Positions 25,723-52,387 of a stretch of DNA of 64,000 bases are shown piece after piece. Source of the stretch: an uncultured Clostridia bacterium (GTDB lineage: Bacteria > Bacillota > Clostridia > Christensenellales > UBA1242); assembly GCA_947626955.1 (NCBI GenBank), contig CANQUB010000002.1:1505-65504 (forward strand), given 5' to 3'. Positions within the stretch are counted from its first letter, which is position 1, and every line of letters begins with the position of its first letter. The notes beneath the pieces are model-generated. The model was not told the origin of the DNA, searched no databases, and saw only the letters and a list, made by a program, of their open reading frames with translations. The translations under genes were made by a program, and so were the position numbers.

Positions 25723-25728
25723 AGACAT

Positions 25729-25755
25729 AAAAAAATGGGCAATGCCCATTTTTTT
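25729..25755. terminator. bidirectional intrinsic terminator
   Basis: An A-run, then ATGGGC (25735-25740), loop AAT, GCCCAT (25744-25749), then a T-run. It lies between convergent genes. Confidence 0.65.
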
Positions 25756-29000: not shown

Positions 29001-32000
29001 TTAAAACAAATTAACTAATATGTCTAGGAAGTCTCGATCGGTTTTAAACACAAGCGAAATCATTTCTGCCACGTACAAATACCATGTTGAGCCTACCAAT
29101 ATTATTCCGCCGACAGCATTCAGTACTGGCCATGGACTATACCTATGTTCGTTCGAACGAATTCTTACTCTTGGATCAAGTTTTAGCTGCAGTGTTATTT
29201 TGTTTGAGCCTTGCTTTGCTAAGCTTTCACCATCAAGACACATCATACCTCTTATAAGTCGTCGGAAACTTCCAAGATATTTGAGTGCTCCATTGAACAA
29301 ACCACCAAAATAGTTTCTTAGAACCTTACCAAATGGCAATTTGTTGCATGTTCCTTGGTCTTCATCGGAGTAGGCAAATGTGTTGTTACTTGTGCTAATA
29401 CCATTGAAGCCGGCATTTTCGTACGACAAATTCCATTCGAGCGTAGCTTTAATGAAGTAGTCATAACCTTTTTCAGCTCTCCAAACAACTTTGGCGTCTT
29501 TTGGATGGTTGACTTGTTTTTGATGGTGCTCACTAAGAACGTAGTGATAGAACACAAGGTCGTCGGCATGGAAGAAAGCGTGATAGGAGTTGACATCAAC
29601 GCCATTTCGACACAAATTGAATACGTCGATGACAGTGTAGTGGAAGAAGTTATTGATGTTGTTTTGAGCTTCTTGTCCGGTTCCAAAGTCTATGTTGAAG
29701 TATCTATACAGCAGGTCGGCCATGGCTTCTTGATAGGTATCTAGTTTAGAATAATCTTTCCAAACGTCTTGGCAGGCTGATAGATAATCTTCTCCACGTC
29801 TTTTACCACCAAGGTCATTGTTGCTCGATCGGTCACCCGTTGGTGCAAGACCCACAATCTTTCCGTCTTCGCCAACATCCTTGATTATTGAGGACTCAGT
29901 GAGCATTATTCGAAGAACTTTGGCAAGTTCAAGATCATTCTTGGTTCCTTTTGTTGGATTTGCTTCAAGTATATCTACGATGTCTAGCAGCAAGTTTAGT
30001 AGATATCCACCGTTTTCCATAATAATTATGTAGGCGTTGGTTATTTCGTATTGATTGAGTAAGTCAATACAATCTGCACCATTGTTATTGCTAATCTTAA
30101 GCTTGTTTAGGTCTGCATTTTTAGTAAGGTTTACTACAGAATTGTCTCCAACCTTTACGCTGGCTTCTAGTGTGTAGGCAAATTGGAAATATTTCAAGAG
30201 TACATTTACATCTGGAAGTAGGGTGAGTGGCTGGTCACTATCTTCAAGCTGGTCAATATAGTCTGTATAGAAACCATTGACTTGCGTTGCAGTTTGGACA
30301 TTAATTTCGCTTTGGTTAGTTGAAACATATCCAGGGGTCTCAATTCCCGAAGCATAGATGACTTTTTCACCTCCCGATATATTGCTAAGAGGATTATTCT
30401 GGGTTATCCTAACAGTAGGGAAGCCGTATTCAGTGGCCGAAACTTTGTAGTCTATTACAATTGTTCCTTTCGAGAAATCAACTTGAAGCGCACCTTTCTC
30501 TGTGAAGGATTTTGGATCAATCTTTTCGCCATCTATTTCTAGTGTGAAGAGATTGGCTTTGAGTCTTGGTCCGTCAATTCCGGTTATTTCATCTGGTTGA
30601 GTGTCGATATATCTTAAAATATTGTCGACCTTTGGTATGAGCTTATTATCCGCACCGATGTAGTATTCATATTGGTTATCCCCAAAACCATAGGCATATA
30701 GCGACGCTGGAACATTTCCATCTGTGCCAAATTTCAAATCGAAAGCCTTTTGATTGTTTTTATACTTAGCTTTGGCATAGCTATTGGTATTTTGAGCGGT
30801 GAATGCTACTGTCTTCATTTGATCTTTACTGTATGTTGTATGATTATTATAGGCAATGTAAACTGGTTCGCCTGAAATATAAGATAGCACTTGATTATTG
30901 CGATCTGCACTCTTTTCAATTGAAATTAAGCTGGTTTGGATTCTTGTTGGAATAACATATTTTTGCTCTTGATACTCGTCTATTTCTGAAGATGAATAAA
31001 TTAAATTGCCATCAACATCATTTATTGCATAGACATATGGGTCATGTTTGTCAATGGTTATTTGAGTATTGGTGTTTGCTCGGTTATTCTTGTTTGAACC
31101 GTTTGTGTAAGTATAATAATATGTTCCGGCCGAAGGGTTTTCCCAGTTTGGAGCTTCACGGATATAGTCGGCGTAGGTGAGGTAGGTGTCTCCCATCTGA
31201 TCATTACCCTTACCATTTGGTGCATAAACATAGGCACCAAGCACATCGGTGATATTTATAATTAACCTATATGAAATGTACGAATAGTATGCATCAATTA
31301 TTATGTCTTGGTCGATGTCATAGATATACAGGTTATTTCTCTGGTCGGCGCCGGTAAACTCTCCGGTGCTTGAATCATAGAGGCCATAAACATCATCATA
31401 TTTCAACCTATACACACCAGGCCATTTTTCATAGCCCTCATCGGTAAACTCATGAGCTGGATCTGCCGAGTCGTAGGCAATTTTAATTTTCCTTTCATCT
31501 GATGTGGTGAACTCTTTCTCGGTTGCCCAACCGGCGAATTGAACATAGCGGTGAGATACCGAGGTTAGAAGGGTAGGAGTGTAGGCCTCAACCAGCCTGT
31601 CACCCTTTACATTGGCCGATTGAACTTCCTTCTTGGTCATCCTTGATATGCCCTCGCTGCCCTCTGGGTCGTCCTCATCATACATGACTTCATTGTCTTC
31701 CATGAACTGGTACTGGTTGACAGTTATTGAGAATACTCTAGCTTCGTAGAGAGCATAAACAATGGTATCGTTTGAAAGGGTTATGGTAGTCTCGGCGCTA
31801 TAATAGTTGCCTCTACCATCTTTGAGCAGGCGGTAATTGTTAATGAAGACATAGCTTGTGATAGGAGTGGTATGGCTTTGCTCATCAAAGTCTTGGACAT
31901 TAATGTTGTTATAGTAGCTGGCTGAGATGAGTATGAAGCCAAGGAAGAAGTAGTTTTCTTTGATGTCAGCCGAAAGGGTTACTGCAGTATTTCTTGGAAT

Positions 32001-35000: not shown

Positions 35001-38000
35001 AGTGTCTTGACCCGAATAGTTGGTTACAACCTGACTATACAAGCTAAATGTGTTCGCTGTTCGATAGTCAATGGTGTATTGAGAAAGCTTAACGAATCTG
35101 GCCGTTACATTTGCTACAACGCCATCATATTTAGCTGTTTGAGTTGTGCTATATGTGTTAGACAATTTGAGTTCGTCAATTGTATTGCCAAAAGCAATTG
35201 TGGTGTAGTATCCGACGAACATATATTTTTCGCCATATATGGTGTAAATTTGGTTTGCTCTATCTTCTTGGCTAGAAGAAAGGGAAATATCTCTGCTATC
35301 AATATAATGCTCTTCGCGTGAGTCATATATTGTATAGTAATGCTCAGTGTCGTCAAACACCGAAACATTTTCATATTCTTCATATTTGGCAACCAGGCTT
35401 ATGTCGTCGCTCACCGTCATATCAAAGTTGTAGTTGTAGGAAAGGGCATAGGTGGAGTTTGCAACGTTTTGGCCGTTGTATACGTACCAGCCTTGGAAGT
35501 AGTAGGTCTTGCCATTGCCACTAAGCGTTCTTAGAGCTGAAAGATTAAGGTTATCATTAATATATCCATAGTAATAATTATATCTAAGCTCGTTGGTGTT
35601 ATTAAATCTAACATTGATTGTATTTTCATTATTCTGCGTTACTGTAATAGCATCAATTTGATTGAAATCAAGGCCAAACTTAGAATTAATTTCGCTTTTA
35701 TCCACGCTGCCGTTTACTGCCACATAGAAGTTTATGTTGGTCTCCTGAACAAAGCGTATGTCAACCATAATGTCGCCTTTTCCCTCAGGAACAGCAAAGC
35801 TATACGAGTATGTTGAACGACTGATGTCGATGGCTTCTTGATTGACAAAGATGGCTTTTACCTTATATCCTGCATTCGTATTGACAGAAATATTAATTTC
35901 ATTTTCTTGACTTGTATAGAAGTATTGAGGAGCCACAACTGAGCCACCTGATGGCGTGGTTGAACTGATGTTGACGCTATCCCTTGCAAATGAGGTGGTC
36001 TTGTATGATATTGCATATTCCTTATAGTACACTGCGGTCACGATAAGATTACTTACAGTGTTGACTGCAAGTCTAGCCACAGTTTTTGCCGTATCAGCAA
36101 CATACAAAAGATTGCTTGAAATGTCGGTGCCGTTGTCATAGACAGTGAAGCCCATAAAGCGGTATCCGCTTACATGGTCGGCTGCAAGCACAAGTTCGCC
36201 ACCAAGGTGCAGGTTTAGCGACATACTTGAGCGGTCGCTGTTCATGCTATAGAGTTTGACGCTGGTGTCTGGGGTTTCGTTTGTGCCTTTATTTTCAATA
36301 ATGTTTCCAACAGCCCAAATGGTTAGATCCATGGTTGATGGCTCGTTGTCGACCTCTCTTTCAATGGTGAGGTTGACGGTGGTGATATATCTAGCCACAA
36401 TGGTAGCATTTCGGGTTATTTTATATATGTCTTGATCAATTGTAGCCTCTCTTGATACCAAGGTTTCGTTTATGTACCAACCAACGAAGATATATCTTTG
36501 ATTCTCGGTCGATGTGGTAAATGAATAACTAAGATCGGCAGCCTGAATATTGAAGTTCTTTGTTGCATCTGTGAGTGTTCCGTCCTCACTTTCAACAGCG
36601 TTTTCACGGATGGAGTAGGAAAGAGCAATGTCATCGTAGTTGTCGACCTGCCCGTCAAGCTCACGCATAAGCTGAATTTGAATTGAAGGAACAAAGTCCA
36701 CAGTGAGTGAGGATGACTGCGCTGTGTATTGCAGAGTTATTAATTGAAGCGCGTTATCTAGTCTCTCAGACTGGCCGCCATGGTAGTTTACAATTGAGGA
36801 TACGAAATAGCGGTCAGAAACAACACTAGAAATGGAAATTCTAATAGTTAATTTAGTATTGCTAATATAAACGATGTCTTTTTCAAGGTCGCTGCTTAGC
36901 GATACCGTCTTTTGCTGGTTTTGAGCATCGGTATAGATGATTACTATATCAAACAGCGACTTGAAGGCGTTGGTCATCTGTCCACCAAAGTAATAATTTG
37001 ACTGATCCTTGTCATCTTCGGAAATGGTGATGTTTTTGGTGACATGAAGGGTGGAAACTTGCGAGTAGATGGCTTGAATTTCAACTCTATAAATTTCATA
37101 GGTTGAGCCCGATTGACGAGTTCCGTCATCAATGTTCAATATAATTTCGGCATCTTTTTGATCGCTCAGCATGCGAGGGTTGCTGGCTTTGCCGTTTCTC
37201 CAATAGTTGAAGAAGTAGCGGTCAAGATTGTTGGTCCTGGTTTCAACCACGTGAAGTTTTACGCCCGAAGGCACTCTAAACAAGTCGGATGTGGAGTTTG
37301 TGAAGGCTCTTTCTTTCTGTCCATCACGAACATCGTCATAGCTTACAGTTGCCGAGAAGCCGTTTACTGTTGTGTTTGAAGTTAGAGACAAACTTCTTAC
37401 TGAAAGGTTCAAATAATAGGTGAATCTGGCCTCAACAGCCATATCTTCTTTGACAGTGATATTGTAGGTGTACTCCGAAGATAGAAGCTGGCCGTCTTTA
37501 AACCAACCAATGAAATAGAAATAATCTTTGGTGGAGTCTAGAAGGGACAATGAAATGTCGGTGTTAAGTGCAAATGTACCACTTAGGCCATATGAGTTTT
37601 GTCCCATCATGATTCGAGTTAGGGCACCAATATTTGCTTGCTCTGGGTCGGTGGTCATGTCTATAGTGCGATACAGTCTTTGACTTATTGAAATGCGTGT
37701 TCCACGCTGATACAAAACGCTGATTGTGATGTCGGTTTCAATACGCGAAATAGTGACATGAATATAGCCTTCATGGTTCTCGGTAAGAAGGGTTGGTCCA
37801 GGATTGCTTGGAGTTACAGTAACGGTAGGATAAGTATAGTTTTCGATGATGTAGCAATCTAATTCCAAGGTTGCACCATTTAGAACATAGTTGTAGCCAC
37901 CTTCTTCGTAATAGCCAAATACTGTGGTGCTAAACGAATTTGCACCGCTGCGAATGTTGCCTTGATCGTTTATTTGCATTGAACCTTGACCATCGGCATC

Positions 38001-41000
38001 AATTGTCACTTTGTCAATCTTGACATACTTAATCTCGTAAACACCGGTAGGTGAAAGGACAAGGCTTTGAGCGTCTGTTCCAACAAACTCAACCTCACTT
38101 ACGCCTTGCTGGTAGTTGTATTCGGTCTTAAAGTAGCCAAGGAAGGCGTAAACCGATCCGTTGTAGCTTATAAATTGCGACTTGGTTGCAATCTGCAAAA
38201 TTGCATTGGAGCTAAAGGTGTAAACCCCGGTTCCGTCAAATGTAATCTGGCCATTTTCTTCAAATTCTTCATTATCTAAGAAGCGTTTGCCGTTAAATAT
38301 CAATAGGCTGATTGCCCCAAGGTTTTCAGGGAATTGAGTTCCGGCAATAAAGGCGTCGTTAACACTGTCGACATAGCTATGGGTGAAGATTACCTGCTGA
38401 GTGGTCTCAATGATGGCCTTTGCATAGTAAGCCGAGTTATTTGTAGATAGCTCGAAGTAGTTGTTTGTGTTTAGTTCAACAAGGTCTCCCGAGTACTCGA
38501 AGTTTATGATAAATTCTCCCGACTTTTGACCTTTATAAGCATCCGTGTTAAGTCCAGGGAAGGTGGCTGCAAGGTCGTTAGTATTTTGGCCACATCCATT
38601 GATGTACCACTCGAAGATGGTTGCTCCTTCTTCGGCCCTTTGAAGGGTTATAAGGGCAAGTTTGCCGCTCATTTCGTCGTCAAAGTAGCCGTAGAGTGCA
38701 AGGTGGCCGCCAACCAGCGAAGCACAGATAGGGTATTGAGTGCTGTCTTTGCCGTCTAGGTTCAAAATTGAATCAACATATCCGTCAAACTTTGATCCGT
38801 CGGTCTCTACCAAAAGTTTTGGACTTGCAGAGTCGGAAAGGTCATAGAGTGCAAAGTCGACATTGTTGAATGTATACTCCGAATTTTGTCCTCTTGAACT
38901 TGCGTAGTTCTCGATGTCGATATATACAAGGTTGACTTTCTTGGTCAAAGCCTCAAGCTTAACGTTTGTCAATCTGTCTGTAAGGCTAGCAATTTCTTTA
39001 ACAGGTAGACTCATGCCAAACACACCATTTAGACGCATATCGCCATAGGTGTAGGCCGTGCCGTCATAATCACTATTTCCATCTTTGTCAAAGTAGGTGA
39101 TGTGGTCGTTGTTAAGGTCAAGCTTAATTGGGGTGGCAAAAGAAGCATCTTTATTAACAAAGTTGAAGCCATCAAAGCGATAACCGCCGCTTGGAATAAC
39201 GGTTATTTGAAGCTCGGTATCAAAGCAGAATTTGCCGGTGATTGAGCACATATTACCAGTGATTGACTGAGTCACTGGCTGGCCAAGGCTGTCTAGCCCG
39301 TTATTTGCAAAGTTTATAGTAATTTTGCTCATATCGTAGGTAAATTCTACCTGAACCACTCTCTTATAGAGTGCCACAATAACAGTATCCGAGGTTGCAA
39401 GCGACAGGTATGGCTTTTCTAGGTCATGGGACATAATGGTCATTGGTGACCATAGACCGGTTTGCCTGTCATACTTTTGCTCATACCAACCAACAAAGGC
39501 GTAGCCATTTTCTGCTGCCGAAGTACCATCAAGAAGCACAACGCTGTTTTCGGCAAAAGCAAAGTCTTCGAGCAGGGTGTGGTCTCGGCCGTCTGTGCCG
39601 TATGGCAAGCCCTTATAGTGGGTGTCAAAGACAAATGGTGTGTCGCCAACATAGTAGCCGTTATCACCATGGTTTTTATAGCTATATTCGAGCTCTTCCT
39701 TTTCGCCTGTGCCAAGATAGGTTCGGCCATTTGTTCCAATTGCGGCGTACAGGCCGTTTAGAAGATTGTGCGCCGTTGCGCCTTTCTTCAAAATAACCTT
39801 GCCGTTTTCTTCATACTTAAAGTCGGTTGAATCTTCTTCTTGCTCAAATTGGTCAATGGTCATTGACTGGATGGTGTAGCTGTAAATAGGTATGGTCGAA
39901 AGGTTTACAAAGTTTTGTTGTCCGCTCTTTATCAAATATGGTGGCTGATAATCTTTATCACGCCTAACTTGCCTTATTTGGTTAAAGATTGTAAAGGCAT
40001 CTGAATACTCAGTAGACGATGTGCTGTCTGTGACATGGTCAACATAGTATAGCCCTGGCTGCTTCATTGCAAGGCTGAGCTGGTTTAGACCATCTTGAAT
40101 GTTTTCATAATTTTTTCCACGAACCCTAGCTAAAACATCGCTAGCAAGGTGAAGTCTATCAAAGTATTTGTCTAGGTTTACAGTTTGCAGACCATTGATG
40201 TCGGCTCCTAGATCATAATCAATTTTGTTTCCAAAATTATCATAGTGAACGAAGCCAGCCTTGTTATAGAAGTCAAGGTAGTTACCGGCAAGCACGTCAA
40301 AGGACATTGAATCGCCACGGGTAGGGTGAACAATGTAGCTGCCGTATTCGTTTTCTGGGTCACGGTCGTAGGTGACTCTAAAGATATAATAGTAATAATC
40401 AACGCGATCGGTTTCACGTGCTGACTGGTTGTAGTTGATAAAGTCGTCGGTTGGGTACAAAATTGGCTCTAAGACATAGTTAGAATTCATGCCAAGCGAA
40501 TGTATGGACAAATTATACTGCGATTGAACACTGACCACAATATAAACCGTGGTCATTGGATCAAAGTACATCGACTTCATAACCAAACTTTTATCTAGCG
40601 ATGGATCCTTGTCGGCGTTGACACGATATACACTTGTTTTGCCGCCAAAACCACTTAATAACGAGCTATAGTTATCTGCCCCAACATATGGCTTATCTTT
40701 TCTTTGACTTTGTCCTTCACGATATGTAAAGTCCTTGTTCAAAAATTCTGAGAAGTTAGAAGCTCTGTCGCCATCGTAGAGCTTAAATAGGCTTCTATCC
40801 AAACCGTAAGCATTATAGTCGTAAGCATCAGTGGCGTTTACATACGCACCATCAATACTGCTGCTTCTCAGATGCATTGGCTCTTCGAGGTTCTTTTCGA
40901 CATCTTGGCTAGTGTAGTAGACAGCCTCGACCTTAATTCCCGAATATTCCTCGTCTTCAACATAAATATATTCATTGTAAATTTCAATAAATTTGGCAAC

Positions 41001-44000
41001 ATATCTAACATTGCAGTGCAGGGAATGAATGATGAGGTTGTAGTTCTCGTCAACCACAACGTTGCCCTGAGTGCGGGTGCGATAGTAATGCAACACGCCG
41101 TCCTCGGTAACATTTTTATAAATTCTAATGCCGTTTAAAACATAATAGTCATCGCCAATTTGCTTGATGGCTGCTTCGTAGGTCATCTCGAATACTTCTT
41201 GGTCTTCAACAACGCGGGTAAAGGCGGTGTCGTAGTAATAATAGTCGCTGGCCTCATTTGGACGATAAACCTGGATGTAGTTAGGGTCATCCTTGCTGCC
41301 CGTTGCAATAAAGAATCCACGAACTCGGCTGAGCATAGAATCAGGAACAACGGCAGGCTCGTTATGGCTTACGTCACGATAGTAAATATAACCTCTTGTA
41401 GCATCTTGGGTATAAAAAGGTGTTATATAGTAATATTGTCTAAAATATTCATTATAGTAGGCCCTGAATATCTCATCGGAGTAGGAGTATTCAGAGTTGG
41501 TAACCTTTTCATCGGTGGTCAACCATAGGCCAAGTTCCTCGTCAAAAATGCACTTATACCAGCCTTCAAGTCGATAACCGATTGCTGGCTTTGGAGTGAG
41601 GATAATCTCGGCATCACGGTCAATATATGAGCTCTTAAACTGCTGCGAAGGATAAACATTTCCGTTTTCATCGGCAAAGAGTTCACCATCGGTAAGTGAA
41701 GCATGAGTTGAGTGCTTGCGACCATCTTCGATATGGGCAACAAAAGTTGGCATCTCGGAGTATAGAAGCGAGAATGAATAGCCCACTGTGTCTTTAATTA
41801 AAGAAGTAAAAGGTAAATATGTAGAAAGTTTAAATTCAAAAGAAGTTGTGTCTATTTGATTGAGCTGTATGTTGCTTACAATATGTGCAACAGCACCGCC
41901 AAAAATAGAACCTAGACCGGTAATATTTAATAGATATTGTTCTGACATATTGCGGTCGATAGTTACACCTGCAACACTCTTTAGTCCATAAGCGCCGGCT
42001 GCTTTTAATACCTTTCTGACAGCATCATTGTTAGTGAAGGCATGGCTGTTTTGATACCAGTTCCAATAGATAAGAACGGTCAAAATATTGACATTTTGTT
42101 TAATACTGCTATTACCTTGTCTAAGCGAAGTTAAAGAAGACAAATCTAGGCTAGAAAATTCATTGGTGTTCTCGTCATAGCATAGAGGCATACTAACTCG
42201 GTTGGAAGTATTGCTAGTTATGCTGTCATAGTAGAAGTAGGAGTTGAAGGCATAGTTAAATAGTTCACCAAAAGTAACTGGGTCATTGTGATTTTCCAAA
42301 TAGAACCCTTCGTCTTCAAGTTCCAAATTTGCAGTAATACCGCTGGCCAATTCATAGAAGTACCTGTCGTTTCCGCCTTCATGCCAAATTGGCACAACTC
42401 CACGAACTCCCTCTTTAAGCTCACGCAAAATTCTTATTGGCTCAAAGCCAGTAACATTATTTCCATCCCTTTTAATTTCAAAATATAGAGTGGCTTCTTC
42501 GGTTGAAAGGTTTGCAATGTCTGGTTGATAATTAAACGAAAAGATGTTTTTATTTAATGCAAAGATAGGCTCTGTGCGTTCTTCACCCGTCTCTTCGTCG
42601 GTTATTGTTTTGAATTTACCAGTGAAGTATAGGAAGATAGAACCATTAATTTGGCCGTAGTAGTAACCAGTTTTTCCGTTTTCAACAGTCTCGTAGAAAT
42701 CGGTGAGGTAGAGGTTACGATCAACAAGGCCTTCCATGTTGGCTTCTTCGCTGTCTTTATCATAGGAAAGGTCGATGCTACCACCTTTGTTTAGAGCACC
42801 GTCAATAACCGCCGTTCCAATATCTACCGAGAACACTCTTTGGTAAACTGGCATGATGACATAATAGCCAGCTGTGGATGGGGCAAATTGCAAGATGGCG
42901 TTGTATTGGTCATTAGGTTGAATGGATTTGTCGAGATACAAAATTTCGCTGTTATATCTCTTATAAACACGCCACATTTTGAAACGATAGATGTATGATT
43001 GCCCGGCATCGTCTTGAACCACAACAGTTGGGCTGGCCACAAACACAGCCATTTCACGCCCGGTCAGGAAATATGCATCACGAGCATTATATGCATTGAT
43101 AAGGTTTACTTGTCTGTCAAACCAGTAACCGTTGAGCTCAAAATTTTCAGAGGCCTTTGTTCGGTATGCATAAGCCACGCCACCAAGCATAACTTCGTCG
43201 TAGTTGAACACGCCGTTGTCGCTTTGTGTAATACCAGGAGTGAGGCCTTCAAGCCCGTTGCAAACTTGGTTTTCATCTAAGTTTTCCGAACCCGAAGTGA
43301 AGTATAAAATTCCATCTTGGCCTTCGTAGTAGGTGTGGACGTCGTATACGGGAACTTGCTCAATCTTGGTTGAGTCGGTTCTCCACAAGATGAGCTCTTC
43401 TTCGTAGTTAATCTCTTTAAAGGCCATATTTCCACGTTCGTCGATATATGAACGATAAACCTTGTTTAGATATTTGTCGGATGGGGAAATTACGTCGGCA
43501 AAGTAAAGGTATGAGTCACCGTCGTTGATGCCCACATCTTGAATGGTAAGTTCGTTATTAAGCGTTGTGTATGGAACATAGTACTTGCCGTTATAGTAGA
43601 AGCACATATCGTCAGATACGCCTGCTGGCCTAGAATCAAACTGAACATAACCAACGATTGGTTTAAAGGTCTTGTTATCCAAGATCCAATAGGTCTTGTT
43701 GATATAGTCGTTTAATGTTAGGTTAAGCAGTGTGTCTTTAAAGGCATAGGTGCAGAAATCTCGAACTTGGTTTGAGTCTTCAGGTGCAATGTTTGTTCCA
43801 AGCAACTCGGCATAGAAGGCATCTTTGATGTCAAACGAGATGTTTACAATGGCGTCCTCGCCATATTTATGCCTTATCGAGAAGAAAAGAATTGGGTTAG
43901 GGTATGGCATTCCGGCAAGAAGTTTAAAGCCAGGCATACCTTCAACCACAAGCTGCCTTGAGGTGTAGTCGAGCGAGTAGTATTTAAAGTCTGCATCCTC

Positions 44001-47000
44001 GCCAAGACCATGAGTTAGAATATACGAATCCTCTTCGCTGTATTTGTTATAGGACGAGAAGGTAGGATAGACCACAGGGTCATTTGTTCCCGTCTCTAGG
44101 AAATATTTACCAAGAACGGTAACGTCGTCATTGGTTGTTATGAGCTTTGCCATTCTAATTAGCTGGTTGGCATATCTTGGAACACTTATGGTTTCTATCG
44201 AAGCAACAAGCTCAAACAAATTTGTAGCGAGACCCGATTGAGGTCGTACATTATTGCCATTAGGGTCTTGAATTATATCTCCATCAGGATCTAGCAAATT
44301 GCCATTACTATCCACTATTCGTTGCCCATTTGGATAAGAAGTAGGGGGTTCTGTGCTTCCTTCACCATCTTCGGATGGAGTGAAATTAGCATAGTATCTA
44401 TAAGCTTTGTTATAGCTCAATTCAATATTAGGCACAACAACTTTGTTATCGAGTGTAACACCAAAATACAGGTCAACAGCTGATTGCTCTTCGTCTTCTC
44501 TAATTTGAATGGATGGAATCAAATAATTCAGGTAATTATATTTTGTGGTCGAGACAATTCTTTCCGAAGAATACTCATATTGACTGTAGGTTTGTCTTAT
44601 AGCTGTATCTGGTAAAGCTGCTCCGTTTTTCTTTATACCTGTTATAACAAAACGGCTAGCAAGCGTGTTGTCAACATTAAAGGAAAATTCATATTTTTCA
44701 GTGTCAAGCACAAAGGCTGCTACTGTATTAACAACTTGTTCGGGATCATTGGTGTAGTTGCCATCTGCGTCAACGCCTACCGATATTGAGTTGACAACCT
44801 TATAGTATCCAAAGCCATTGCCTAAATCTGCATGAACCATATCATAAACTTGATAAGACCAATTGCCATCGCTATATTGCGGTTCATAATACTTGAATAA
44901 GAACTTCATATTGTATTTGTTTTCAACCTGGACAAATTTAGCAATAGCAATGTGCAGTATGTTGTTTTCACCATCTTCAATTTCTTGAACTTCACAAGTG
45001 TTCTTGTAGTTGGCAGGGTTGGTGATATCACTGTTAAATCCATAAGATACCAGACCTGATGCAGCGTAAAGTGTATTTGTTTTGACTTTTAACCCAGAAT
45101 CAACGACTTGGCCTCCAACACTTGCTGTGAGCATGGACATGAAGACCGATCTTCCGTTATTATCTTGTAAATCACCAGTGTTAGTTCCGGCAAAACCGCC
45201 CCATCTTTTTAGCTTGCCGTTTGCAGTCTTATACCACAATACCACGCTTTGAGTCTCTTCGTTTGCGGTAATACTTTGAATATATTGACTGACAAGAACT
45301 TCGACTTCTTCTCCAAGCTTTTCAATGTAATAGTAGCACGAGGAAATAATGCTTGAGCCCATGGCATCACGGAAGACGATAGCTTTTTCTTCACTACTTT
45401 TCAAAATATCCCTTCCAAGCATTATACTTCTTTGGCGAACAAGATCATCAAAGTTGGTTATCTCGGGATAGAAGTGCTCATCAACAAAAGTAGTGTCACC
45501 GTCTTCGCCTTCAATGGTAGTCTTTTTGCCAAGAGGAGACTTAAAGTATTTATCGCCACTTGTCGTGGTCACAATGTCATAGTAGACATAAACATTTTGC
45601 TCGCCGTCGCCATCAGGATTTTTATATGTCATTGCCGTTCCATAAACGGTAGCAATGGCACTTACATTTCTCATTTCATGATCAACAGCAGGGTTGTTAG
45701 AGTTGTTAACAGGATCAACTTTTACACCATTTATAAAAATTTCTTCTTCGCCAGTTTGGGTGTTGCCGCTGACTAAGACGTCATCATCATTTACCATGGT
45801 GTAGGTGATGATGGTGACATCATTGTTGCTGCTAGAAAGGTTGTAGGCCAGGACTTCATAGGTTCTTTCGTCGGTTTCATCAAACTTGTTATAATACATG
45901 ATTGTGTTTCCACCGACTTTGGCCGTGCGGGTATAGTTATAGAACTCAGTTCTTCCGCCTCGGGTTATTTCTATTTGCTGCCCATCCACTGTTCGCTTTA
46001 CATTTCCATTGTAAGCGCTGGTGGTAAAGCGGTAGAAATTTGAACGTGTGTAACTAAAGGTGTTTGCGTCGTAGAGCATCTTTGCAACATATTGCTCACC
46101 TGTTAATGAAGAATAGAACTCAAAGGTGTTTTGAGACAGGGTTTCAACATTATATCCAACCAGCGAGCAGTTGGCAGGGAGCTGGATGGAGATGATGACG
46201 TTTGTGGTAACATAGCCATTGTCGTCAACCACGCTGGTCACACTTCTAATGACCTCGTAGCTAATTCCAAGCTGCTTTAATAAATTAAGGTAGGTTGCAT
46301 TGTCGTTTTCATCCTTAAGGCAAGTTTCGCCGTTCTCATCAATTCCGTAGACATTGACAACAAGATTGCTTTCTTCTTCAATCAGTGTAGCAATAATGCC
46401 TGAATTTTGTCTATCGGTGTAAACAGTCTCATTGTCCATGACGGTAAGACACTTTTTGATATTGCCATTAAGGCTCTTTTCACGCATTACAGCCGAGTGG
46501 AAGGTGTATGGCACAGATATATTTTCAAAACCAAAGCCATCGGTTTTGCCAAGTTTTTCGAAGGCGATAAAGTCGCCACATTCAAGGCCGCTGACCGAGA
46601 ACTGAGACCCCTCAATGGAAATGGTGATTGAACGATTACGATCCTGTTCAACCATCAAATTGTTGCCACTATAAGTCCCTTTTGCAGTATCTGTAACCGA
46701 ACTGGTCGAGCTTTGGCTTATCTGGCACAAAATTTCATTGTTTTTATTATAGACAATGATGTCAAAGCCGGTCAAATACTGGTTTCCGGCACCAAAGAAG
46801 TTCTGGCTATCAAAAATTGTGCCCGAGAGGCTGTAGTTTCTAACCTTGGCATGGTTGGCATAAAGTTTACTTCCGGCCAGTCTGGTGCTAGAAGTTACCA
46901 CAAGGTCGCTTCTTAGATAGAGTGCATCGTTTGAATTAACCTCGGCAAGCTCTCCGATATTATTTACGCCGTAGATATATTCCTTTACATATTGGCTAAG

Positions 47001-48479
47001 GGCGGTTGACTCTTCGGGTTTATAGTACCCGGCTTTGTAAGCAAAATCGGCTGGGAAGTCATCGCTTAGTCCATACATGAGGTATGTCACACTTCCAAAG
47101 GCCGACGAATTTGTCTTTAGTGCCTCAGGAATACAACTTAGACCCTCTTTTGTCACAGAATCGTAATTTTGAAAAATATTGTAGTCATTAGAGTACATAT
47201 TCTTTGGCATGGTCTCTTTAATGACGGCAGTGTTTTCGGCCTTGGCATTTAGAGTCCATGGCTGGAAGGCGTAGTCGTAGTCGTTAAAGGCGTTGTAGAC
47301 TTTTTGACCGTTAGAATCAAAACTCTTTACTGTCCTTGACTCACGGGAAACAATAACCTGACGCCCCTCAGGGAAGGAGCCAATAAGCATGGAGTTATAT
47401 TCGGTGTTAGAAACCGAGTCGACCATGCGTTTAACAGTGTGGAAATAGAACGAACCCTCGTCATACAAAAGCCCTCCATAGTTAAGGTCTATGGAGTTAG
47501 GGCTATAGGCTTCGAAGGTCAGAGTATAGGCGTTGAATGCAATAGTGTTCGAATAGAGCGAATCGCCGCGGTTGGTATCTTTTGAAAGCGCCTTTACTTT
47601 AAGATATCTATTTGTGCCACCGCCTTCAAGCATTGGGTTAAACTTTATCATGAAGTTGCCGGTGCGGCTGTCGGTAAAGTAGGTCATCATGCCTTTTGGA
47701 CACTCGATAAACCCATCGCTGACATCGCCTTGAATACGGCCCGAGCGATAGTAGAAACTAAACAATCTGCCATCCTCGTTTTCTACGGCCGTTTGGTCGA
47801 CAAATGGGTTGCTTGCTCGGTCAATATCGTAATCAACACGAGGGTTTTCGTTCAGCACAACTCTAAAAGTATAATACTTGCCGTCGATAACGACTTCGTA
47901 GTCAGGGAAGGAAACCGACCTACCATTAAGCACATATTCCGACTTTGAGTATACAGTGGAAATTTTATTTTCGCCGCTTGACGATGTGTCGGCATAGAAG
48001 TGGCCACGGCCATCAAAAACGCAGTCCCAAGTTACATTTGCAGGGGCAGAATCGCCATAGAAATAGTCGATAACTTCGCTTCTAGATGTGGCATATATAG
48101 GCATCTTTTTGCTGCCGCGAACGTATGGCTCATTAAAACGCGAATCAAGGAAGAAATTCTTCAAATAGCCAATCTGGTCCTCTTCCATAGAATCAGCCGA
48201 GGCATAGTAGTACTGAAGGGGCCAATAAAAGCTGCCTGAATCACTGCTGATATTTTTAGCCTCGCTGGTAAGATAGGCCTCACGGTCGTATGGATAGTAT
48301 TCCAAAGAAGGAGCATACAGCCTTAAATGGCCGTCTGCATCATAGGACGGGTTAATGGTGGATGAACCGCTTGTCAGCTTGCAGGCTGCAAAGGTGAACA
48401 GCCCCAATACAGCCATAAAGACCACCGACAAGATTAGCATTATCCTTGATTTGAATTGACTTTTAGCAGTAACTTTCAT
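29001..48479 (-). CDS. giant cell-surface protein (6,492 aa) with a lipobox-like N-terminus, many degenerate Listeria-Bacteroides (Flg_new/InlB B-repeat)-type modules, a unique C-terminal module and a C-terminal hydrophobic helix
   Basis: Uninterrupted 19,479-nt ORF with AAGGAGAA RBS 7 nt upstream of ATG 48479. N-terminus MKVTAKSQFKSRIMLILSVVFMAVLGLFTFAAC (Cys33). At least 12 copies of an aromatic-x-F-x-G-(W/F/Y)-(Y/F) motif lie between about 41.6 and 31.5 kb. C-terminal segment WPVLNAVGGIILVGSTWYLYVAEMISLVF. Confidence 0.9.
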   Translation of the reverse strand: MKVTAKSQFKSRIMLILSVVFMAVLGLFTFAACKLTSGSSTINPSYDADGHLRLYAPSLEYYPYDREAYLTSEAKNISSDSGSFYWPLQYYYASADSMEEDQIGYLKNFFLDSRFNEPYVRGSKKMPIYATSRSEVIDYFYGDSAPANVTWDCVFDGRGHFYADTSSSGENKISTVYSKSEYVLNGRSVSFPDYEVVIDGKYYTFRVVLNENPRVDYDIDRASNPFVDQTAVENEDGRLFSFYYRSGRIQGDVSDGFIECPKGMMTYFTDSRTGNFMIKFNPMLEGGGTNRYLKVKALSKDTNRGDSLYSNTIAFNAYTLTFEAYSPNSIDLNYGGLLYDEGSFYFHTVKRMVDSVSNTEYNSMLIGSFPEGRQVIVSRESRTVKSFDSNGQKVYNAFNDYDYAFQPWTLNAKAENTAVIKETMPKNMYSNDYNIFQNYDSVTKEGLSCIPEALKTNSSAFGSVTYLMYGLSDDFPADFAYKAGYYKPEESTALSQYVKEYIYGVNNIGELAEVNSNDALYLRSDLVVTSSTRLAGSKLYANHAKVRNYSLSGTIFDSQNFFGAGNQYLTGFDIIVYNKNNEILCQISQSSTSSVTDTAKGTYSGNNLMVEQDRNRSITISIEGSQFSVSGLECGDFIAFEKLGKTDGFGFENISVPYTFHSAVMREKSLNGNIKKCLTVMDNETVYTDRQNSGIIATLIEEESNLVVNVYGIDENGETCLKDENDNATYLNLLKQLGISYEVIRSVTSVVDDNGYVTTNVIISIQLPANCSLVGYNVETLSQNTFEFYSSLTGEQYVAKMLYDANTFSYTRSNFYRFTTSAYNGNVKRTVDGQQIEITRGGRTEFYNYTRTAKVGGNTIMYYNKFDETDERTYEVLAYNLSSSNNDVTIITYTMVNDDDVLVSGNTQTGEEEIFINGVKVDPVNNSNNPAVDHEMRNVSAIATVYGTAMTYKNPDGDGEQNVYVYYDIVTTTSGDKYFKSPLGKKTTIEGEDGDTTFVDEHFYPEITNFDDLVRQRSIMLGRDILKSSEEKAIVFRDAMGSSIISSCYYYIEKLGEEVEVLVSQYIQSITANEETQSVVLWYKTANGKLKRWGGFAGTNTGDLQDNNGRSVFMSMLTASVGGQVVDSGLKVKTNTLYAASGLVSYGFNSDITNPANYKNTCEVQEIEDGENNILHIAIAKFVQVENKYNMKFLFKYYEPQYSDGNWSYQVYDMVHADLGNGFGYYKVVNSISVGVDADGNYTNDPEQVVNTVAAFVLDTEKYEFSFNVDNTLASRFVITGIKKNGAALPDTAIRQTYSQYEYSSERIVSTTKYNYLNYLIPSIQIREDEEQSAVDLYFGVTLDNKVVVPNIELSYNKAYRYYANFTPSEDGEGSTEPPTSYPNGQRIVDSNGNLLDPDGDIIQDPNGNNVRPQSGLATNLFELVASIETISVPRYANQLIRMAKLITTNDDVTVLGKYFLETGTNDPVVYPTFSSYNKYSEEDSYILTHGLGEDADFKYYSLDYTSRQLVVEGMPGFKLLAGMPYPNPILFFSIRHKYGEDAIVNISFDIKDAFYAELLGTNIAPEDSNQVRDFCTYAFKDTLLNLTLNDYINKTYWILDNKTFKPIVGYVQFDSRPAGVSDDMCFYYNGKYYVPYTTLNNELTIQDVGINDGDSYLYFADVISPSDKYLNKVYRSYIDERGNMAFKEINYEEELILWRTDSTKIEQVPVYDVHTYYEGQDGILYFTSGSENLDENQVCNGLEGLTPGITQSDNGVFNYDEVMLGGVAYAYRTKASENFELNGYWFDRQVNLINAYNARDAYFLTGREMAVFVASPTVVVQDDAGQSYIYRFKMWRVYKRYNSEILYLDKSIQPNDQYNAILQFAPSTAGYYVIMPVYQRVFSVDIGTAVIDGALNKGGSIDLSYDKDSEEANMEGLVDRNLYLTDFYETVENGKTGYYYGQINGSIFLYFTGKFKTITDEETGEERTEPIFALNKNIFSFNYQPDIANLSTEEATLYFEIKRDGNNVTGFEPIRILRELKEGVRGVVPIWHEGGNDRYFYELASGITANLELEDEGFYLENHNDPVTFGELFNYAFNSYFYYDSITSNTSNRVSMPLCYDENTNEFSSLDLSSLTSLRQGNSSIKQNVNILTVLIYWNWYQNSHAFTNNDAVRKVLKAAGAYGLKSVAGVTIDRNMSEQYLLNITGLGSIFGGAVAHIVSNIQLNQIDTTSFEFKLSTYLPFTSLIKDTVGYSFSLLYSEMPTFVAHIEDGRKHSTHASLTDGELFADENGNVYPSQQFKSSYIDRDAEIILTPKPAIGYRLEGWYKCIFDEELGLWLTTDEKVTNSEYSYSDEIFRAYYNEYFRQYYYITPFYTQDATRGYIYYRDVSHNEPAVVPDSMLSRVRGFFIATGSKDDPNYIQVYRPNEASDYYYYDTAFTRVVEDQEVFEMTYEAAIKQIGDDYYVLNGIRIYKNVTEDGVLHYYRTRTQGNVVVDENYNLIIHSLHCNVRYVAKFIEIYNEYIYVEDEEYSGIKVEAVYYTSQDVEKNLEEPMHLRSSSIDGAYVNATDAYDYNAYGLDRSLFKLYDGDRASNFSEFLNKDFTYREGQSQRKDKPYVGADNYSSLLSGFGGKTSVYRVNADKDPSLDKSLVMKSMYFDPMTTVYIVVSVQSQYNLSIHSLGMNSNYVLEPILYPTDDFINYNQSARETDRVDYYYYIFRVTYDRDPENEYGSYIVHPTRGDSMSFDVLAGNYLDFYNKAGFVHYDNFGNKIDYDLGADINGLQTVNLDKYFDRLHLASDVLARVRGKNYENIQDGLNQLSLAMKQPGLYYVDHVTDSTSSTEYSDAFTIFNQIRQVRRDKDYQPPYLIKSGQQNFVNLSTIPIYSYTIQSMTIDQFEQEEDSTDFKYEENGKVILKKGATAHNLLNGLYAAIGTNGRTYLGTGEKEELEYSYKNHGDNGYYVGDTPFVFDTHYKGLPYGTDGRDHTLLEDFAFAENSVVLLDGTSAAENGYAFVGWYEQKYDRQTGLWSPMTIMSHDLEKPYLSLATSDTVIVALYKRVVQVEFTYDMSKITINFANNGLDSLGQPVTQSITGNMCSITGKFCFDTELQITVIPSGGYRFDGFNFVNKDASFATPIKLDLNNDHITYFDKDGNSDYDGTAYTYGDMRLNGVFGMSLPVKEIASLTDRLTNVKLEALTKKVNLVYIDIENYASSRGQNSEYTFNNVDFALYDLSDSASPKLLVETDGSKFDGYVDSILNLDGKDSTQYPICASLVGGHLALYGYFDDEMSGKLALITLQRAEEGATIFEWYINGCGQNTNDLAATFPGLNTDAYKGQKSGEFIINFEYSGDLVELNTNNYFELSTNNSAYYAKAIIETTQQVIFTHSYVDSVNDAFIAGTQFPENLGAISLLIFNGKRFLDNEEFEENGQITFDGTGVYTFSSNAILQIATKSQFISYNGSVYAFLGYFKTEYNYQQGVSEVEFVGTDAQSLVLSPTGVYEIKYVKIDKVTIDADGQGSMQINDQGNIRSGANSFSTTVFGYYEEGGYNYVLNGATLELDCYIIENYTYPTVTVTPSNPGPTLLTENHEGYIHVTISRIETDITISVLYQRGTRISISQRLYRTIDMTTDPEQANIGALTRIMMGQNSYGLSGTFALNTDISLSLLDSTKDYFYFIGWFKDGQLLSSEYTYNITVKEDMAVEARFTYYLNLSVRSLSLTSNTTVNGFSATVSYDDVRDGQKERAFTNSTSDLFRVPSGVKLHVVETRTNNLDRYFFNYWRNGKASNPRMLSDQKDAEIILNIDDGTRQSGSTYEIYRVEIQAIYSQVSTLHVTKNITISEDDKDQSNYYFGGQMTNAFKSLFDIVIIYTDAQNQQKTVSLSSDLEKDIVYISNTKLTIRISISSVVSDRYFVSSIVNYHGGQSERLDNALQLITLQYTAQSSSLTVDFVPSIQIQLMRELDGQVDNYDDIALSYSIRENAVESEDGTLTDATKNFNIQAADLSYSFTTSTENQRYIFVGWYINETLVSREATIDQDIYKITRNATIVARYITTVNLTIEREVDNEPSTMDLTIWAVGNIIENKGTNETPDTSVKLYSMNSDRSSMSLNLHLGGELVLAADHVSGYRFMGFTVYDNGTDISSNLLYVADTAKTVARLAVNTVSNLIVTAVYYKEYAISYKTTSFARDSVNISSTTPSGGSVVAPQYFYTSQENEINISVNTNAGYKVKAIFVNQEAIDISRSTYSYSFAVPEGKGDIMVDIRFVQETNINFYVAVNGSVDKSEINSKFGLDFNQIDAITVTQNNENTINVRFNNTNELRYNYYYGYINDNLNLSALRTLSGNGKTYYFQGWYVYNGQNVANSTYALSYNYNFDMTVSDDISLVAKYEEYENVSVFDDTEHYYTIYDSREEHYIDSRDISLSSSQEDRANQIYTIYGEKYMFVGYYTTIAFGNTIDELKLSNTYSTTQTAKYDGVVANVTARFVKLSQYTIDYRTANTFSLYSQVVTNYSGQDTSARLGLTNTSTKITSTSLAGSYVHNQYNAAAGHQVSSGSSFTVGTDVSTVAKVNIIGYNTVVECAAHVNNVTTTQNAADGAKSSVVLNSRATISTTFSITQTSSSKLVVTVYDPSTSTTQSFEVTASQSQTRQLVVGSVVNLYVELSADEQFLEYVIGGDNYRNILYNYTLPSDLSGSLTINAVIGTLYTLVVAENDENAGKVSISERGGLAGVNGYYSLTVNAYKNYAITDILVKSSTSDYVSLLNGGTGLESLAIVNTTIPTYSTFDSNLSNYVTSYTIELSLKANLMLKVVYKHVTTINFIIWTASMAEGSNNPTRAKSTYNLYIYEDKSPMTLDGLIEFLTELDNFNFLDKVGAIDRNAFAYNGQTFTSGTIEFATESYITIEYTTNIKAKMKVEIVINSDDATKYNIPTDGLNIKYGDKQVSSYNSSTEFECSWGSGTALFASDTNNYFVFKGYCYKRMGLAINNTNSQMLMIDPSIITSSIEIEDGVYVIYALFEEIINTLTLDANYDSSSFSITVNGTAVAPNNHYTDSALGNLYVNFDFDTMTYTITYPNSYVKANVKVSVSALNFEESTSDSTYLDALKLEKFYEKDTTDNNVRLRFYRFVDSDGNTLNTRYDTSAEIDLSKHVSDTVITAEAKRLYRVEFAYDYCSDDFTIGLYYIKTNNLTIDKTKIKESFNETDLDKAIITYWAEEGMILSAEVKIDNPDELVAGGYIFKGILGNYANAGVFNKNLLNKGYVFGTEPQLSGSQDWWKQKLELNRYPFVLATALISSANVSDNATLDKFIFYANAPISLLADFLSLGLTGKTDIFAVLANPEYDGTIKANYVQTGDSMVSQQGFVLGFVSEDALDVELTIEEKSNLIYHSDNLDGSYTKYQHTNLYLLGLDGLKELSLLNDRKVVYNNPRYGHVFYTYNFNKSAKDPASNIKQYIISIAVDRYVSLLFKTVKANKKFYTDDSMFTMLNLSRHAEIDNVRYEIRDNDNLRGPTKEINSSFIPRNTAVTLSADIKENYFFLGFILISASYYNNINVQDFDEQSHTTPITSYVFINNYRLLKDGRGNYYSAETTITLSNDTIVYALYEARVFSITVNQYQFMEDNEVMYDEDDPEGSEGISRMTKKEVQSANVKGDRLVEAYTPTLLTSVSHRYVQFAGWATEKEFTTSDERKIKIAYDSADPAHEFTDEGYEKWPGVYRLKYDDVYGLYDSSTGEFTGADQRNNLYIYDIDQDIIIDAYYSYISYRLIINITDVLGAYVYAPNGKGNDQMGDTYLTYADYIREAPNWENPSAGTYYYTYTNGSNKNNRANTNTQITIDKHDPYVYAINDVDGNLIYSSSEIDEYQEQKYVIPTRIQTSLISIEKSADRNNQVLSYISGEPVYIAYNNHTTYSKDQMKTVAFTAQNTNSYAKAKYKNNQKAFDLKFGTDGNVPASLYAYGFGDNQYEYYIGADNKLIPKVDNILRYIDTQPDEITGIDGPRLKANLFTLEIDGEKIDPKSFTEKGALQVDFSKGTIVIDYKVSATEYGFPTVRITQNNPLSNISGGEKVIYASGIETPGYVSTNQSEINVQTATQVNGFYTDYIDQLEDSDQPLTLLPDVNVLLKYFQFAYTLEASVKVGDNSVVNLTKNADLNKLKISNNNGADCIDLLNQYEITNAYIIIMENGGYLLNLLLDIVDILEANPTKGTKNDLELAKVLRIMLTESSIIKDVGEDGKIVGLAPTGDRSSNNDLGGKRRGEDYLSACQDVWKDYSKLDTYQEAMADLLYRYFNIDFGTGQEAQNNINNFFHYTVIDVFNLCRNGVDVNSYHAFFHADDLVFYHYVLSEHHQKQVNHPKDAKVVWRAEKGYDYFIKATLEWNLSYENAGFNGISTSNNTFAYSDEDQGTCNKLPFGKVLRNYFGGLFNGALKYLGSFRRLIRGMMCLDGESLAKQGSNKITLQLKLDPRVRIRSNEHRYSPWPVLNAVGGIILVGSTWYLYVAEMISLVFKTDRDFLDILVNLF

Positions 48480-48548: not shown

Positions 48549-48576
48549 ATTTTAGCACATTATGTCGACGGGTCAA
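48549..48576 (-). promoter_or_regulatory. candidate sigma-A promoter for the giant-ORF operon
   Basis: On the minus strand: TTGACC (48576-48571), a 16-nt spacer ending in TGC, and TAAAAT (48554-48549). The predicted leader is about 60-70 nt. Confidence 0.45.
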
Positions 48577-48816: not shown

Positions 48817-49440
48817 ATGACAAAAGCAGATTCAATTCTAAAATACAAAAAAGCTTACCAAAAAAACACCAATGAAAAGCTAATCGCCGAGGCCCAAAAT
48901 AGCGACCTATTTGCCTACATAAAGGTCCTTTTAAAGGCCTACAAAAACATACCAAACATCATTGCCATTCTCGATAAAATAATTGAAAAGCGTGCCACGA
49001 GCGTGATTCCAACTGCCTCTATCTATGGCGGGAAGTTTTCCACCTATGGCGAGATTGACCATGTCATTGACCTTACTGCAAGAAAAGACAAGCTTTTAAA
49101 CCTCTATGTTCTAACCGGGGAAATGCTCTCTTGTCTTGAAAGTGAGGACAAAAGGCTGCTCACTTTAAAATACGTCAAAAAACTCAGCACGCAAGATATT
49201 GCCGCCTCACTAAAGGTGACCGAACGCACTGTCTTTCGCAGGGAAAGCAGCATATTAAACAAGCTGGCCATTTGCCTTCTAAAAAAGAACTGGACAAGTA
49301 TGTTTTTGCAAAGCCAGATTGGGGATGAACCATGGCTTAATGAGCTCTACCAAAAGGTCAAAGCCGACGAGCTGACCAACCAAGCCCGCTCAGAGAAGGT
49401 GAGCCGCTACAATAGGTCGTCATCATCGATTACTTCATAG
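48817..49440 (+). CDS. sigma-70 region-4-like HTH transcription regulator (ArpU/RinA-like or sigma-like; family uncertain)
   Basis: The segment EDKRLLTLKYVKKLSTQDIAASLKVTERTVFRRESSILNKL matches the sigma region 4.2 / LuxR-like HTH pattern. GAGGAG RBS. Divergent from the giant ORF. Confidence 0.6.
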   Translation: MTKADSILKYKKAYQKNTNEKLIAEAQNSDLFAYIKVLLKAYKNIPNIIAILDKIIEKRATSVIPTASIYGGKFSTYGEIDHVIDLTARKDKLLNLYVLTGEMLSCLESEDKRLLTLKYVKKLSTQDIAASLKVTERTVFRRESSILNKLAICLLKKNWTSMFLQSQIGDEPWLNELYQKVKADELTNQARSEKVSRYNRSSSSITS

Positions 49441-50405: not shown

Positions 50406-50513
50406 GGCCAAAAGTTTAGCAAATATAGACCACCATTTTAAAGGCGAAAAAGAGCAGTTTTTAATAAAAGACTGCGAATAAATAAAATCTTTGTAACAAG
50501 CAAAATTTCGGTC

Positions 50514-50538: not shown

Positions 50539-50580
50539 TCATCATTTTTCGATTAATTTTGCGTTTTTTAAAGGAGGAGC

Positions 50581-52375: not shown

Positions 52376-52387
52376 AGGAGAGAAAAA

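Follow-up and report, generated by a model that had tools for sequence, protein, structure and literature searches.

The question raised by this locus is what kind of protein a bacterium makes from a gene of 19.5 kb, and to what end. The stretch of DNA analysed here, 64,000 nucleotides from an uncultured Clostridia bacterium (contig CANQUB010000002.1; hereafter the window), contains only one very long open reading frame (ORF; 29001-48479, minus strand), which encodes a giant protein of 6492 residues. An earlier sequence-only reading had found this protein lipoprotein-like at its N-terminus, without nameable motif in its first 2,300 residues or so, and studded further on with at least 12 copies of a motif typical of Flg_new or InlB-B-type (Listeria–Bacteroides) repeats. 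As argued below, the giant protein is probably an N-terminally lipid-anchored, fibrillar adhesin-like surface protein. It is also a member of a conserved family of surface proteins of 6,300-7,800 residues which was previously uncharacterised.

The ORF is intact, with AAGGAG upstream of its ATG, no internal stops and a single terminal stop. A search with residues 1-4999 retrieved 15 other proteins of 6,320-7,165 residues (27-39% identity in the best local alignment), and a MAFFT alignment of all 16 shows collinearity throughout, at 25-37% identity across 5,560-5,880 aligned positions. With a profile of residues 1430-2629, HMMER extended the family to at least 45 clusters (at 50% identity) with E < 1e-30, mostly of 6,300-7,800 residues. 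In each genome examined, the giant gene is single, collinear and found at a fixed locus. Very long ORFs in metagenomes merit checking, but nothing specific speaks for an assembly artefact or a decaying pseudogene; since independent assemblies, from many samples, share the length and order of the giant gene, and since the gene contains neither internal stops nor DNA repeats able to cause collapse or expansion, we regard this explanation as ruled out, with a probability close to nil.

The case for a fibrillar stalk comes from the repeat region (table 1). All 12 motifs listed in the sequence-only reading lie within a few nucleotides of where it had placed them, and the pattern [FYWVIL]x[FL]xG[WFY] occurs 14 times, as against 2.3 +/- 1.5 times (maximum 9) in 500 residue shuffles. 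A unit profile was obtained by iterated hidden Markov model (HMM) search on the 16 orthologues, and hhalign against the family profile then mapped about ten diverged units of 65-80 residues. This map agrees with a window-by-window self-comparison, in which 120-residue windows of the 16-sequence alignment were compared by hhalign with the whole alignment and in which the best pair (residues 3975-4050 versus 3633-3705; 95% probability, E = 2e-8) corresponds to very diverged repeats. All of these units lie within residues 2286-4476; of the 12 listed copies, those at residues 3100, 4947, 5510 and 5646 are supported at motif level only (at most 21% probability). The best-matching type of unit is spaced by 330-342 residues (starting at 3636, 3978 and 4308), and this recurrence gives rise to the pairing of motifs about 100 residues apart that had been noticed before and that we could confirm for four pairs (2993/3100, 3654/3755, 3996/4106 and 4326/4419).

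Over its 66 profile positions, the unit consensus reads YxFxGWY and, some 30-35 residues on, IEAxY. This is the Flg_new signature, i.e. a motif strand and a closing hydrophobic-x-A-x-aromatic strand in a unit of about 65-75 residues. In Pfam, residues 2201-4600 taken as a whole score 30.5 bits with Flg_new (cut-off 27), no single stretch being significant, and 23.2 bits with Flg_new_2 (cut-off 23.6), so that the Flg_new match expected from the sequence-only reading was obtained above cut-off for the region but for none of its single units. Segments centred on the motifs matched Flg_new or Flg_new_2 in 7 of 10 cases, and among 20 isolated units these two were the sole Pfam families matched more than once; single segments also matched Dmd, YonK and SANTA, which we rejected as chance matches to a FIGWF-type motif. 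The slice of residues 3390-4500 from the window protein alone gave no Flg_new or Flg_new_2 match at E <= 0.01; among 11 orthologous slices, three reach 7.5e-10 with Flg_new and three reach 1e-8 with Flg_new_2. An HMM that drew on just the 12 motif segments of the window protein proved overfitted, recovering few orthologous units, and blastp of the giant protein against itself found nothing (in a fragment version, matches at E >= 4e-4 only). The profile of residues 1430-2629 also recovers unrelated multi-repeat proteins, in up to 26 stretches each, which match at profile positions of about 800-835, within the region of the first unit.

An AlphaFold2 model of residues 3390-4500, with a predicted local distance difference test score (pLDDT) of 74.6, is all-beta and shows a string of about ten domains in which each motif lies in a strand. 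Foldseek searches of the Protein Data Bank (PDB) with this model returned Gram-positive pilins and adhesins (PitA, T-antigen, SpaC, TIE and SdrD) with E-values from 1e-11 to 1e-6, the low TM-scores being due to the arrangement of the domains as beads on a string. In a viral library, the same model matched gut-phage proteins with arrays of 'bacterial repeat domains' (E down to 1e-31), with labels that include 'Bacterial repeat domain-containing' and 'Internalin B'. The InlB B repeat has a beta-grasp-like fold without the helix (PMC8900821), and it is plausible, judging from profiles and model together, that the units of the giant protein belong to an InlB B-like fold.

How old are these repeats? 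Of 65 units recovered from the 16 orthologues, 60 have as nearest neighbour their positional orthologue in another genome and just one has a unit of its own protein, and mean identity is 34% between positional orthologues versus 19.5% between paralogues. Because the units cluster by position and not by genome, the duplications that produced them predate the radiation of these genomes, with no homogenisation since, and the earlier view of the modules as old and diverged holds. At the DNA level, a blastn self-comparison of the giant gene with word size 7 and a threshold of E <= 0.01 gave 0 off-diagonal matches, its longest exact repeat of 14 nucleotides falls within the range of 12-20 nucleotides seen in 30 codon shuffles, a DNA repeat search found merely chance-level matches of 20-31 nucleotides (64-87% identity), and Tandem Repeats Finder reported three trivial arrays with scores of at most 51. 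That there are no long DNA repeats had been seen correctly, but to call their lack 'unusual' for an adhesin gene was an overstatement; that this lack may stabilise the gene against recombination is a reasonable supposition of the same reading. Highly identical repeats are not a feature of every stalk domain in fibrillar adhesins but define the 'periscope' subclass (Monzon & Bateman, PMC9210967); the giant gene, which shows no highly identical DNA-level tandem repeats of variable copy number, falls outside this subclass.

The N-terminus of the protein, MKVTAKSQFKSRIMLILSVVFMAVLGLFTFAAC, is the second element that carries our interpretation. It combines a basic n-region, a hydrophobic core (h-region) and a lipobox with its Cys within about 40 residues of the start, i.e. 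the sequence characteristics of a lipoprotein, and the Cys33 codon at 48381-48383 is where it had been read before. All three elements are kept in 16/16 aligned orthologues, and the lipobox pattern, searched as [^DERK]{6}[LIVMFWSTAG]{2}[LIVMFYSTAGCQ][AGS]C (a PROSITE-like regular expression), was found in 33 of 35 full-length members of the family.

Between this putative anchor and the repeats extends a long non-repetitive region (residues 34-2285), in which no match to Pfam, NCBIfam or PHROG was found save one marginal Flg_new_2 match at residues 2269-2307, and in which the cryptic periodicity for which a check had been suggested did not show up in profile self-comparison (probability at most 0.6%). 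Its richness in Y, N, T, S and D is real but nothing special, as each of these residues accounts for 7-8% along the entire protein. This region indeed holds no known domain; what had been overlooked is that the best-conserved core of the family (residues 1500-1900) lies within it. Measured at each position by the share of the 15 homologues that carry the residue of the window protein, conservation peaks at about 60% at residues 1501-1600 and 1801-1900, is also high at residues 2300-2500, 2600-2800 and 3000-3100, amounts to about 16-30% across the repeat region and the C-terminal third, and is lowest (10-13%) at residues 5301-5500. Blocks of the core include EGFPG..LLAG.PYPNPV and IYRFKEW.IYSRYNSE. 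A DPDGD-type acidic loop (NGNLLDPDGDIIQDPNGNN), which the sequence-only reading had located correctly, turned out to be an insertion private to this genome: it lies in a poorly occupied stretch of the alignment, where the other 15 orthologues are gapped or unrelated. Since the loop is absent from all orthologues, we rejected it as a functional motif, be it RNA polymerase-like (DxDGD) or calcium-binding.

Could the core, taken as residues 1500-3100 or so, be an enzyme or toxin module that acts, for example, on polysaccharide or the cell wall and is merely presented by the repeats? Its conservation far exceeds that of the rest, many polar and aromatic residues being invariant, and giant proteins elsewhere in bacteria have been linked to cell-wall degradation. 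However, no Pfam, NCBIfam or PDB sequence-profile match was found for it, a structural model of residues 1430-2629 (AlphaFold2, 11 sequences; mean pLDDT 46) was of unusably low quality and had no fold match, and most of the invariant positions are occupied by Y, G, F, N and P, as is the case in structural beta domains. A catalytic core of this kind thus seems highly improbable.

At the other end of the protein, the region of residues 4477-6492 gave no match to Pfam, NCBIfam or PHROG and is poorly conserved, with about 10-36% of homologues identical to the window protein per position. Its very end, a hydrophobic segment with a conserved tail (...GGIILVGSTWYLYVAEMISLVFKTDRDFLDILVNLF), has counterparts in most orthologues, in which a hydrophobic or Gly-rich stretch is followed by D..R..F....N.[FW]; this C-terminal segment may, judging from its composition and recurrence, be a second membrane anchor or a sorting signal. 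No LPXTG or other sortase motif was found in the giant protein. If both ends were anchored, by lipid at the N-terminus and by this segment at the C-terminus, the protein could be a structural component of the cell envelope, i.e. a surface layer, a tether or a scaffold assembled together with the 633-residue protein encoded downstream, which likewise has a C-terminal transmembrane anchor. A single collinear giant gene at a fixed locus in every genome examined and the lack of any recognized adhesive domain would fit such a role. Yet in the protein studied here the segment is moderately hydrophobic (below 1.8 on the Kyte-Doolittle scale), several orthologues have no clear segment, and divergence as fast as that of the giant protein is more typical of exposed binding proteins, which makes an envelope scaffold an unlikely competitor of the fibrillar adhesin-like surface protein.

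This fast divergence is shared by the genes that appear to be expressed together with the giant gene. The gene for the 633-residue protein begins 11 nucleotides past the giant gene stop and is itself overlapped by 4 nucleotides by an M16-family metallopeptidase gene. It follows the giant gene in 9/10 loci, i.e. in each locus with enough flank, and the M16 gene comes after it in 8 of those 9, being absent in the most distant locus, L005. Since the gap and the overlap are this short, and since promoter-like and terminator-like sites lie at either end, the three genes probably form one operon. The promoter-like site, about 70 nucleotides upstream of the giant gene ATG, is a pattern match that implies no functional evidence; the terminator-like hairpin spans the last 4 nucleotides of the M16 ORF (stop codon at 25754-25756) and reaches 27 nucleotides downstream. 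The M16 peptidase has no signal peptide, and its orthologues carry PF00675 and PF05193. Two orthologues of the 633-residue protein gave faint or weak matches to SH3_3. Identity between genomes is 31-35% for the giant protein, 26-41% for the 633-residue protein and 26-33% for the M16 peptidase, as compared with 76-81% for GyrA, 77% for TerL, 73-77% for the major capsid protein and 69-73% for the portal protein of the phage-like module described below. The ranges for GyrA, TerL, portal and giant protein leave out L005, for which the values are 63%, 66%, 62% and 26%, respectively. By these numbers, the giant operon seems to evolve in the manner of exposed surface proteins, and diversifying pressure on exposed parts is proposed as the cause of the fast divergence.

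Surface exposure on which organism, however, depends on whether the giant gene belongs to a bacterium or to a phage. TerL, portal and major capsid protein genes as well as genes for SSB and gyrase in the neighbourhood, together with contigs of 166-385 kb, had prompted us to consider a huge phage. This reading was rejected. The left 24 kb of the window consist of housekeeping genes (pheS, pheT, a pyrimidine-nucleoside phosphorylase gene, deoC, tsaB, a MurF-like ligase gene, ddl, murG, gyrB and gyrA). Orthologues of pheS (75-90% identical, mostly 77-81%) reside on contigs of up to 1.12 Mb and also on contigs whose lengths (165,994, 100,884, 72,951 and 61,763 bp) equal those of contigs with orthologues of the giant gene. 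On a 772-kb contig, the gene order is typical of Bacillota: ctsR-mcsB-clpC are followed by obg, pheS, pheT, tsaE, tsaB, rimI, murF and ddl, in an order that matches the window. The giant gene was found in ten GTDB species genomes, labelled Clostridia (or Clostridiales or Thermoanaerobacterales), with sheep, rabbit, roe deer and human gut as sources; this survey needed an alignment as query, a single sequence having returned no relatives. No relative was found in IMG/VR or INPHARED. For all these reasons, the giant gene is chromosomal in an uncultured lineage of gut Clostridia. The block at 372-17532 also holds genes for an alpha/beta hydrolase and a DUF1538 membrane protein, and an Rfam scan of the window found no family and no T-box upstream of pheS. 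Between gyrA and a polysaccharide deacetylase gene lies the gene for a 587-residue protein (22294-24057, plus strand) with a Lys/Glu-rich N-terminus and no Pfam family, whose counterparts vary from 365 to 961 residues and are 31-47% identical, their neighbours being well conserved.

The phage-like genes nevertheless deserve attention in their own right and are more surprising than the giant gene. To its left are SSB and gyrase; to its right, at 48817-64000 (and at coordinates 1-9700 in loci L001-L005), the bacterial chromosome carries a complete-looking phage structural module, with genes for a sigma-r4/ArpU-like regulator, TerL, a P22-type portal, a 231-residue protein, an HK97-type major capsid protein, a virion protein and tail and tail-fibre proteins. 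Regulator and TerL genes are separated by an ORF of 334 residues (49407-50411, minus strand) with an N-terminal hydrophobic segment and no family match, which shares 34 nucleotides with the 3' end of the regulator gene and is 35-42% identical in all related loci. The order of sigma/ArpU-like, TerL, portal, major capsid protein and tail genes is the same in each related locus with enough flank, and identity between genomes is 70-77% for TerL, portal and capsid protein, comparable to that of GyrA and SSB. These patterns of order and identity suggest that the module is a vertically inherited, selected, phage-derived element, possibly resembling a gene-transfer agent.

This raises the possibility that the giant gene is functionally part of the module, either as a fibre of the particle or as a surface shield or receptor that controls the adsorption of such particles or of phages related to them, in the sense of superinfection exclusion. 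Some phages encode lipoproteins that block superinfection, the module lies next to the giant operon in constant gene order wherever the flank suffices, and the best viral-library fold matches of the repeat region are the gut-phage domain-array proteins mentioned above. Several observations point the other way: the giant protein has no PHROG match, its core has no tblastn match in 50,697 phage records (INPHARED) and the region no INPHARED match, and IMG/VR contigs contain no relative; a lipoprotein export signal is incompatible with virion assembly in the cytoplasm; the giant gene is transcribed divergently from the phage-like genes and, at 31-35% identity, diverges far beyond their 70-77%; and Flg_new/Ig-like arrays are generic, being common to cellular and phage proteins. 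A role within the phage-derived module is thus rather improbable. A broader scenario, in which giant lipoprotein, 633-residue partner and M16 peptidase formed a lineage-specific envelope apparatus, with a core of new fold or function, that is coupled to the vertically inherited capsid/tail module, has to be regarded as a long shot; if true, such an apparatus could, for example, release, receive or block gene-transfer-agent-like particles.

Orthologue family, operon partners, conserved core and phage-like module had all escaped the sequence-only reading. The fibrillar adhesin-like surface protein proposed here could work as follows. The protein would be exported by means of its type II (lipoprotein) signal peptide, and lipid attached to Cys33 would hold its N-terminus at the outer surface of the cytoplasmic membrane of a presumably monoderm host. 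The remaining 6,450 or so residues, which are beta-rich and in which S, T, N, Y and D abound, would then reach through and past the cell wall as a fibre. In this fibre, the non-repetitive region with the conserved core is presumably the functionally constrained part; it would be followed by a central stalk of about ten ancient InlB-B-repeat (Flg_new)-type units with interleaved beta-sandwich domains and by a C-terminal region of about 2,000 residues that evolves fast and is presumably distal. As in fibrillar adhesins, the role of the protein may be adhesion to or contact with the host, mucus or other cells, and the 633-residue protein and the M16 peptidase, if co-transcribed, may help to assemble or process it. 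Fibrillar adhesins are characterized by great length, a repeat-domain stalk and an anchor at the cell surface, and the giant protein has all three, its predicted anchor being the lipobox.

A number of observations weigh against this interpretation or against parts of it. The residue at position -3 of the lipobox is F, which is not the commonest there. At 13-18 bits, each single unit stays below the Pfam cut-offs of 27 and 23.6 bits; against the solved InlB B repeat (2Y5P), the unit profile reaches no better than E = 0.73, and the top 50 PDB fold matches, in a search with the whole model, are Ig/CnaB-like pilins, the InlB B repeat not being among them. Neither an adhesive nor a wall-binding domain nor a sortase motif was recognised, and Pfam and NCBIfam gave no adhesive domain in any part of the protein. 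About 65% of the protein (residues 34-2285 and 4477-6492) shows no detectable domain or periodicity and has no assignable fold, as also reflected in the low pLDDT of the core model, and the conserved hydrophobic segment at the C-terminus is ill-suited to a simple model with a free distal tip.

How does the giant protein compare with known systems? Flg_new has been classed as a stalk domain of fibrillar adhesins, for which threonine enrichment is typical (PMC9210967). Like the Flg_new-stalk fibrillar adhesin-like proteins of Firmicutes (PMC9210967), the giant protein is very long, secreted (as predicted), rich in T, S and N and fast-evolving, and its small Flg_new-related beta domains are repeated without being near-identical. 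It differs from them in having an N-terminal lipobox instead of a C-terminal LPXTG or wall-binding anchor, in the lack of a known adhesive domain and in that only about a third of it is recognisable stalk, with units below cut-off. With the InlB B or Listeria–Bacteroides repeat (PF09479 Flg_new, PF18998 Flg_new_2; 2Y5P), its units share a size of about 65-80 residues, the aromatic-x-F-x-G-W/F-Y strand and a hydrophobic-x-A-x-[YF] strand about 30-35 residues after it, but they differ in the low bit scores and the poor 2Y5P match given above. West-Roberts et al. (2023, bioRxiv 10.1101/2023.11.21.568195) described giant proteins with Listeria–Bacteroides repeats from gut Clostridia; the mammalian gut, the Clostridia, the type of repeat and the proposed adhesion are in common with these giants of 10,000-30,000 residues, whereas the present protein, with its 6.5 thousand residues, is mostly non-repetitive, is a predicted lipoprotein and belongs to a distinct collinear family at a fixed chromosomal locus. 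Finally, periscope or classical repeat adhesins such as SasG, Rib and Ebh are also long Gram-positive surface proteins that form a rod of tandem domains, but they consist of highly identical tandem repeats in variable number, in contrast to a giant gene without DNA repeats above chance, with paralogous units that are about 20% identical and with a length that is stable between species.

Table 1. Elements of the giant protein and its operon. Positions are nucleotides of the window; probabilities are those of hhalign.
Feature	Residues	Position	Strand	Basis or remark
Promoter-like site: TTGACC, 16 nucleotides, TAAAAT, extended TG		48549..48576	-	Consensus scan, 10/12 matches; pattern only
Signal peptide with lipobox, ...LFTFAAC, Cys33	1-33	48381..48479	-	Read from sequence
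N-terminal non-repetitive region	34-2285	41625..48380	-	Without known domain; holds the best-conserved blocks of the family
DPDGD-type acidic loop	1392-1410	44250..44306	-	Insertion private to this genome
Most conserved core	1490-1910	42750..44012	-	Alignment of 16 orthologues; profile of the core region without match among PDB sequences
Repeat (stalk) region	2286-4476	35052..41624	-	About 10 diverged Flg_new-like units, with other beta domains in between
Unit (partial)	2286-2309			52%
Unit	2975-3047			88%
GYRFDGFN motif	3099-3106	39162..39185	-	Motif level only; Flg_new_2 13.3 bits; at most 13%
Unit	3422-3494			97%
Unit	3636-3700			99%
Unit	3736-3818			71%
Unit	3978-4045			98.5%
Unit	4092-4166			76%
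Unit	4190-4257			89%
Unit	4308-4373			97.5%
Unit	4413-4476			79%
C-terminal region	4477-6492	29004..35051	-	Poorly conserved, without known domain
C-terminal hydrophobic segment and conserved tail	6453-6492	29004..29123	-	
Gene for 633-residue protein		27088..28989	-	N-terminal signal peptide, C-terminal transmembrane anchor
Gene for 445-residue M16-family metallopeptidase		25754..27091	-	HFVEH (HxxEH) motif; Pfam Peptidase_M16_C 8e-16
Terminator-like hairpin, 14 pairs		25727..25757	-	Consensus scan; pattern only

Overall, a large Flg_new-type adhesin-like protein in a gut Firmicute is expected biology. What sets this one apart is a giant stalk built from ancient repeats that were never homogenised, which finders of repeat-based adhesins as well as Pfam gathering cut-offs would largely miss. 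Moreover, no fold is known for about two thirds of the protein, its most conserved part among them, which makes it a target for structure-based annotation, in an uncultured lineage that is abundant and represented in human, rabbit and ruminant samples.

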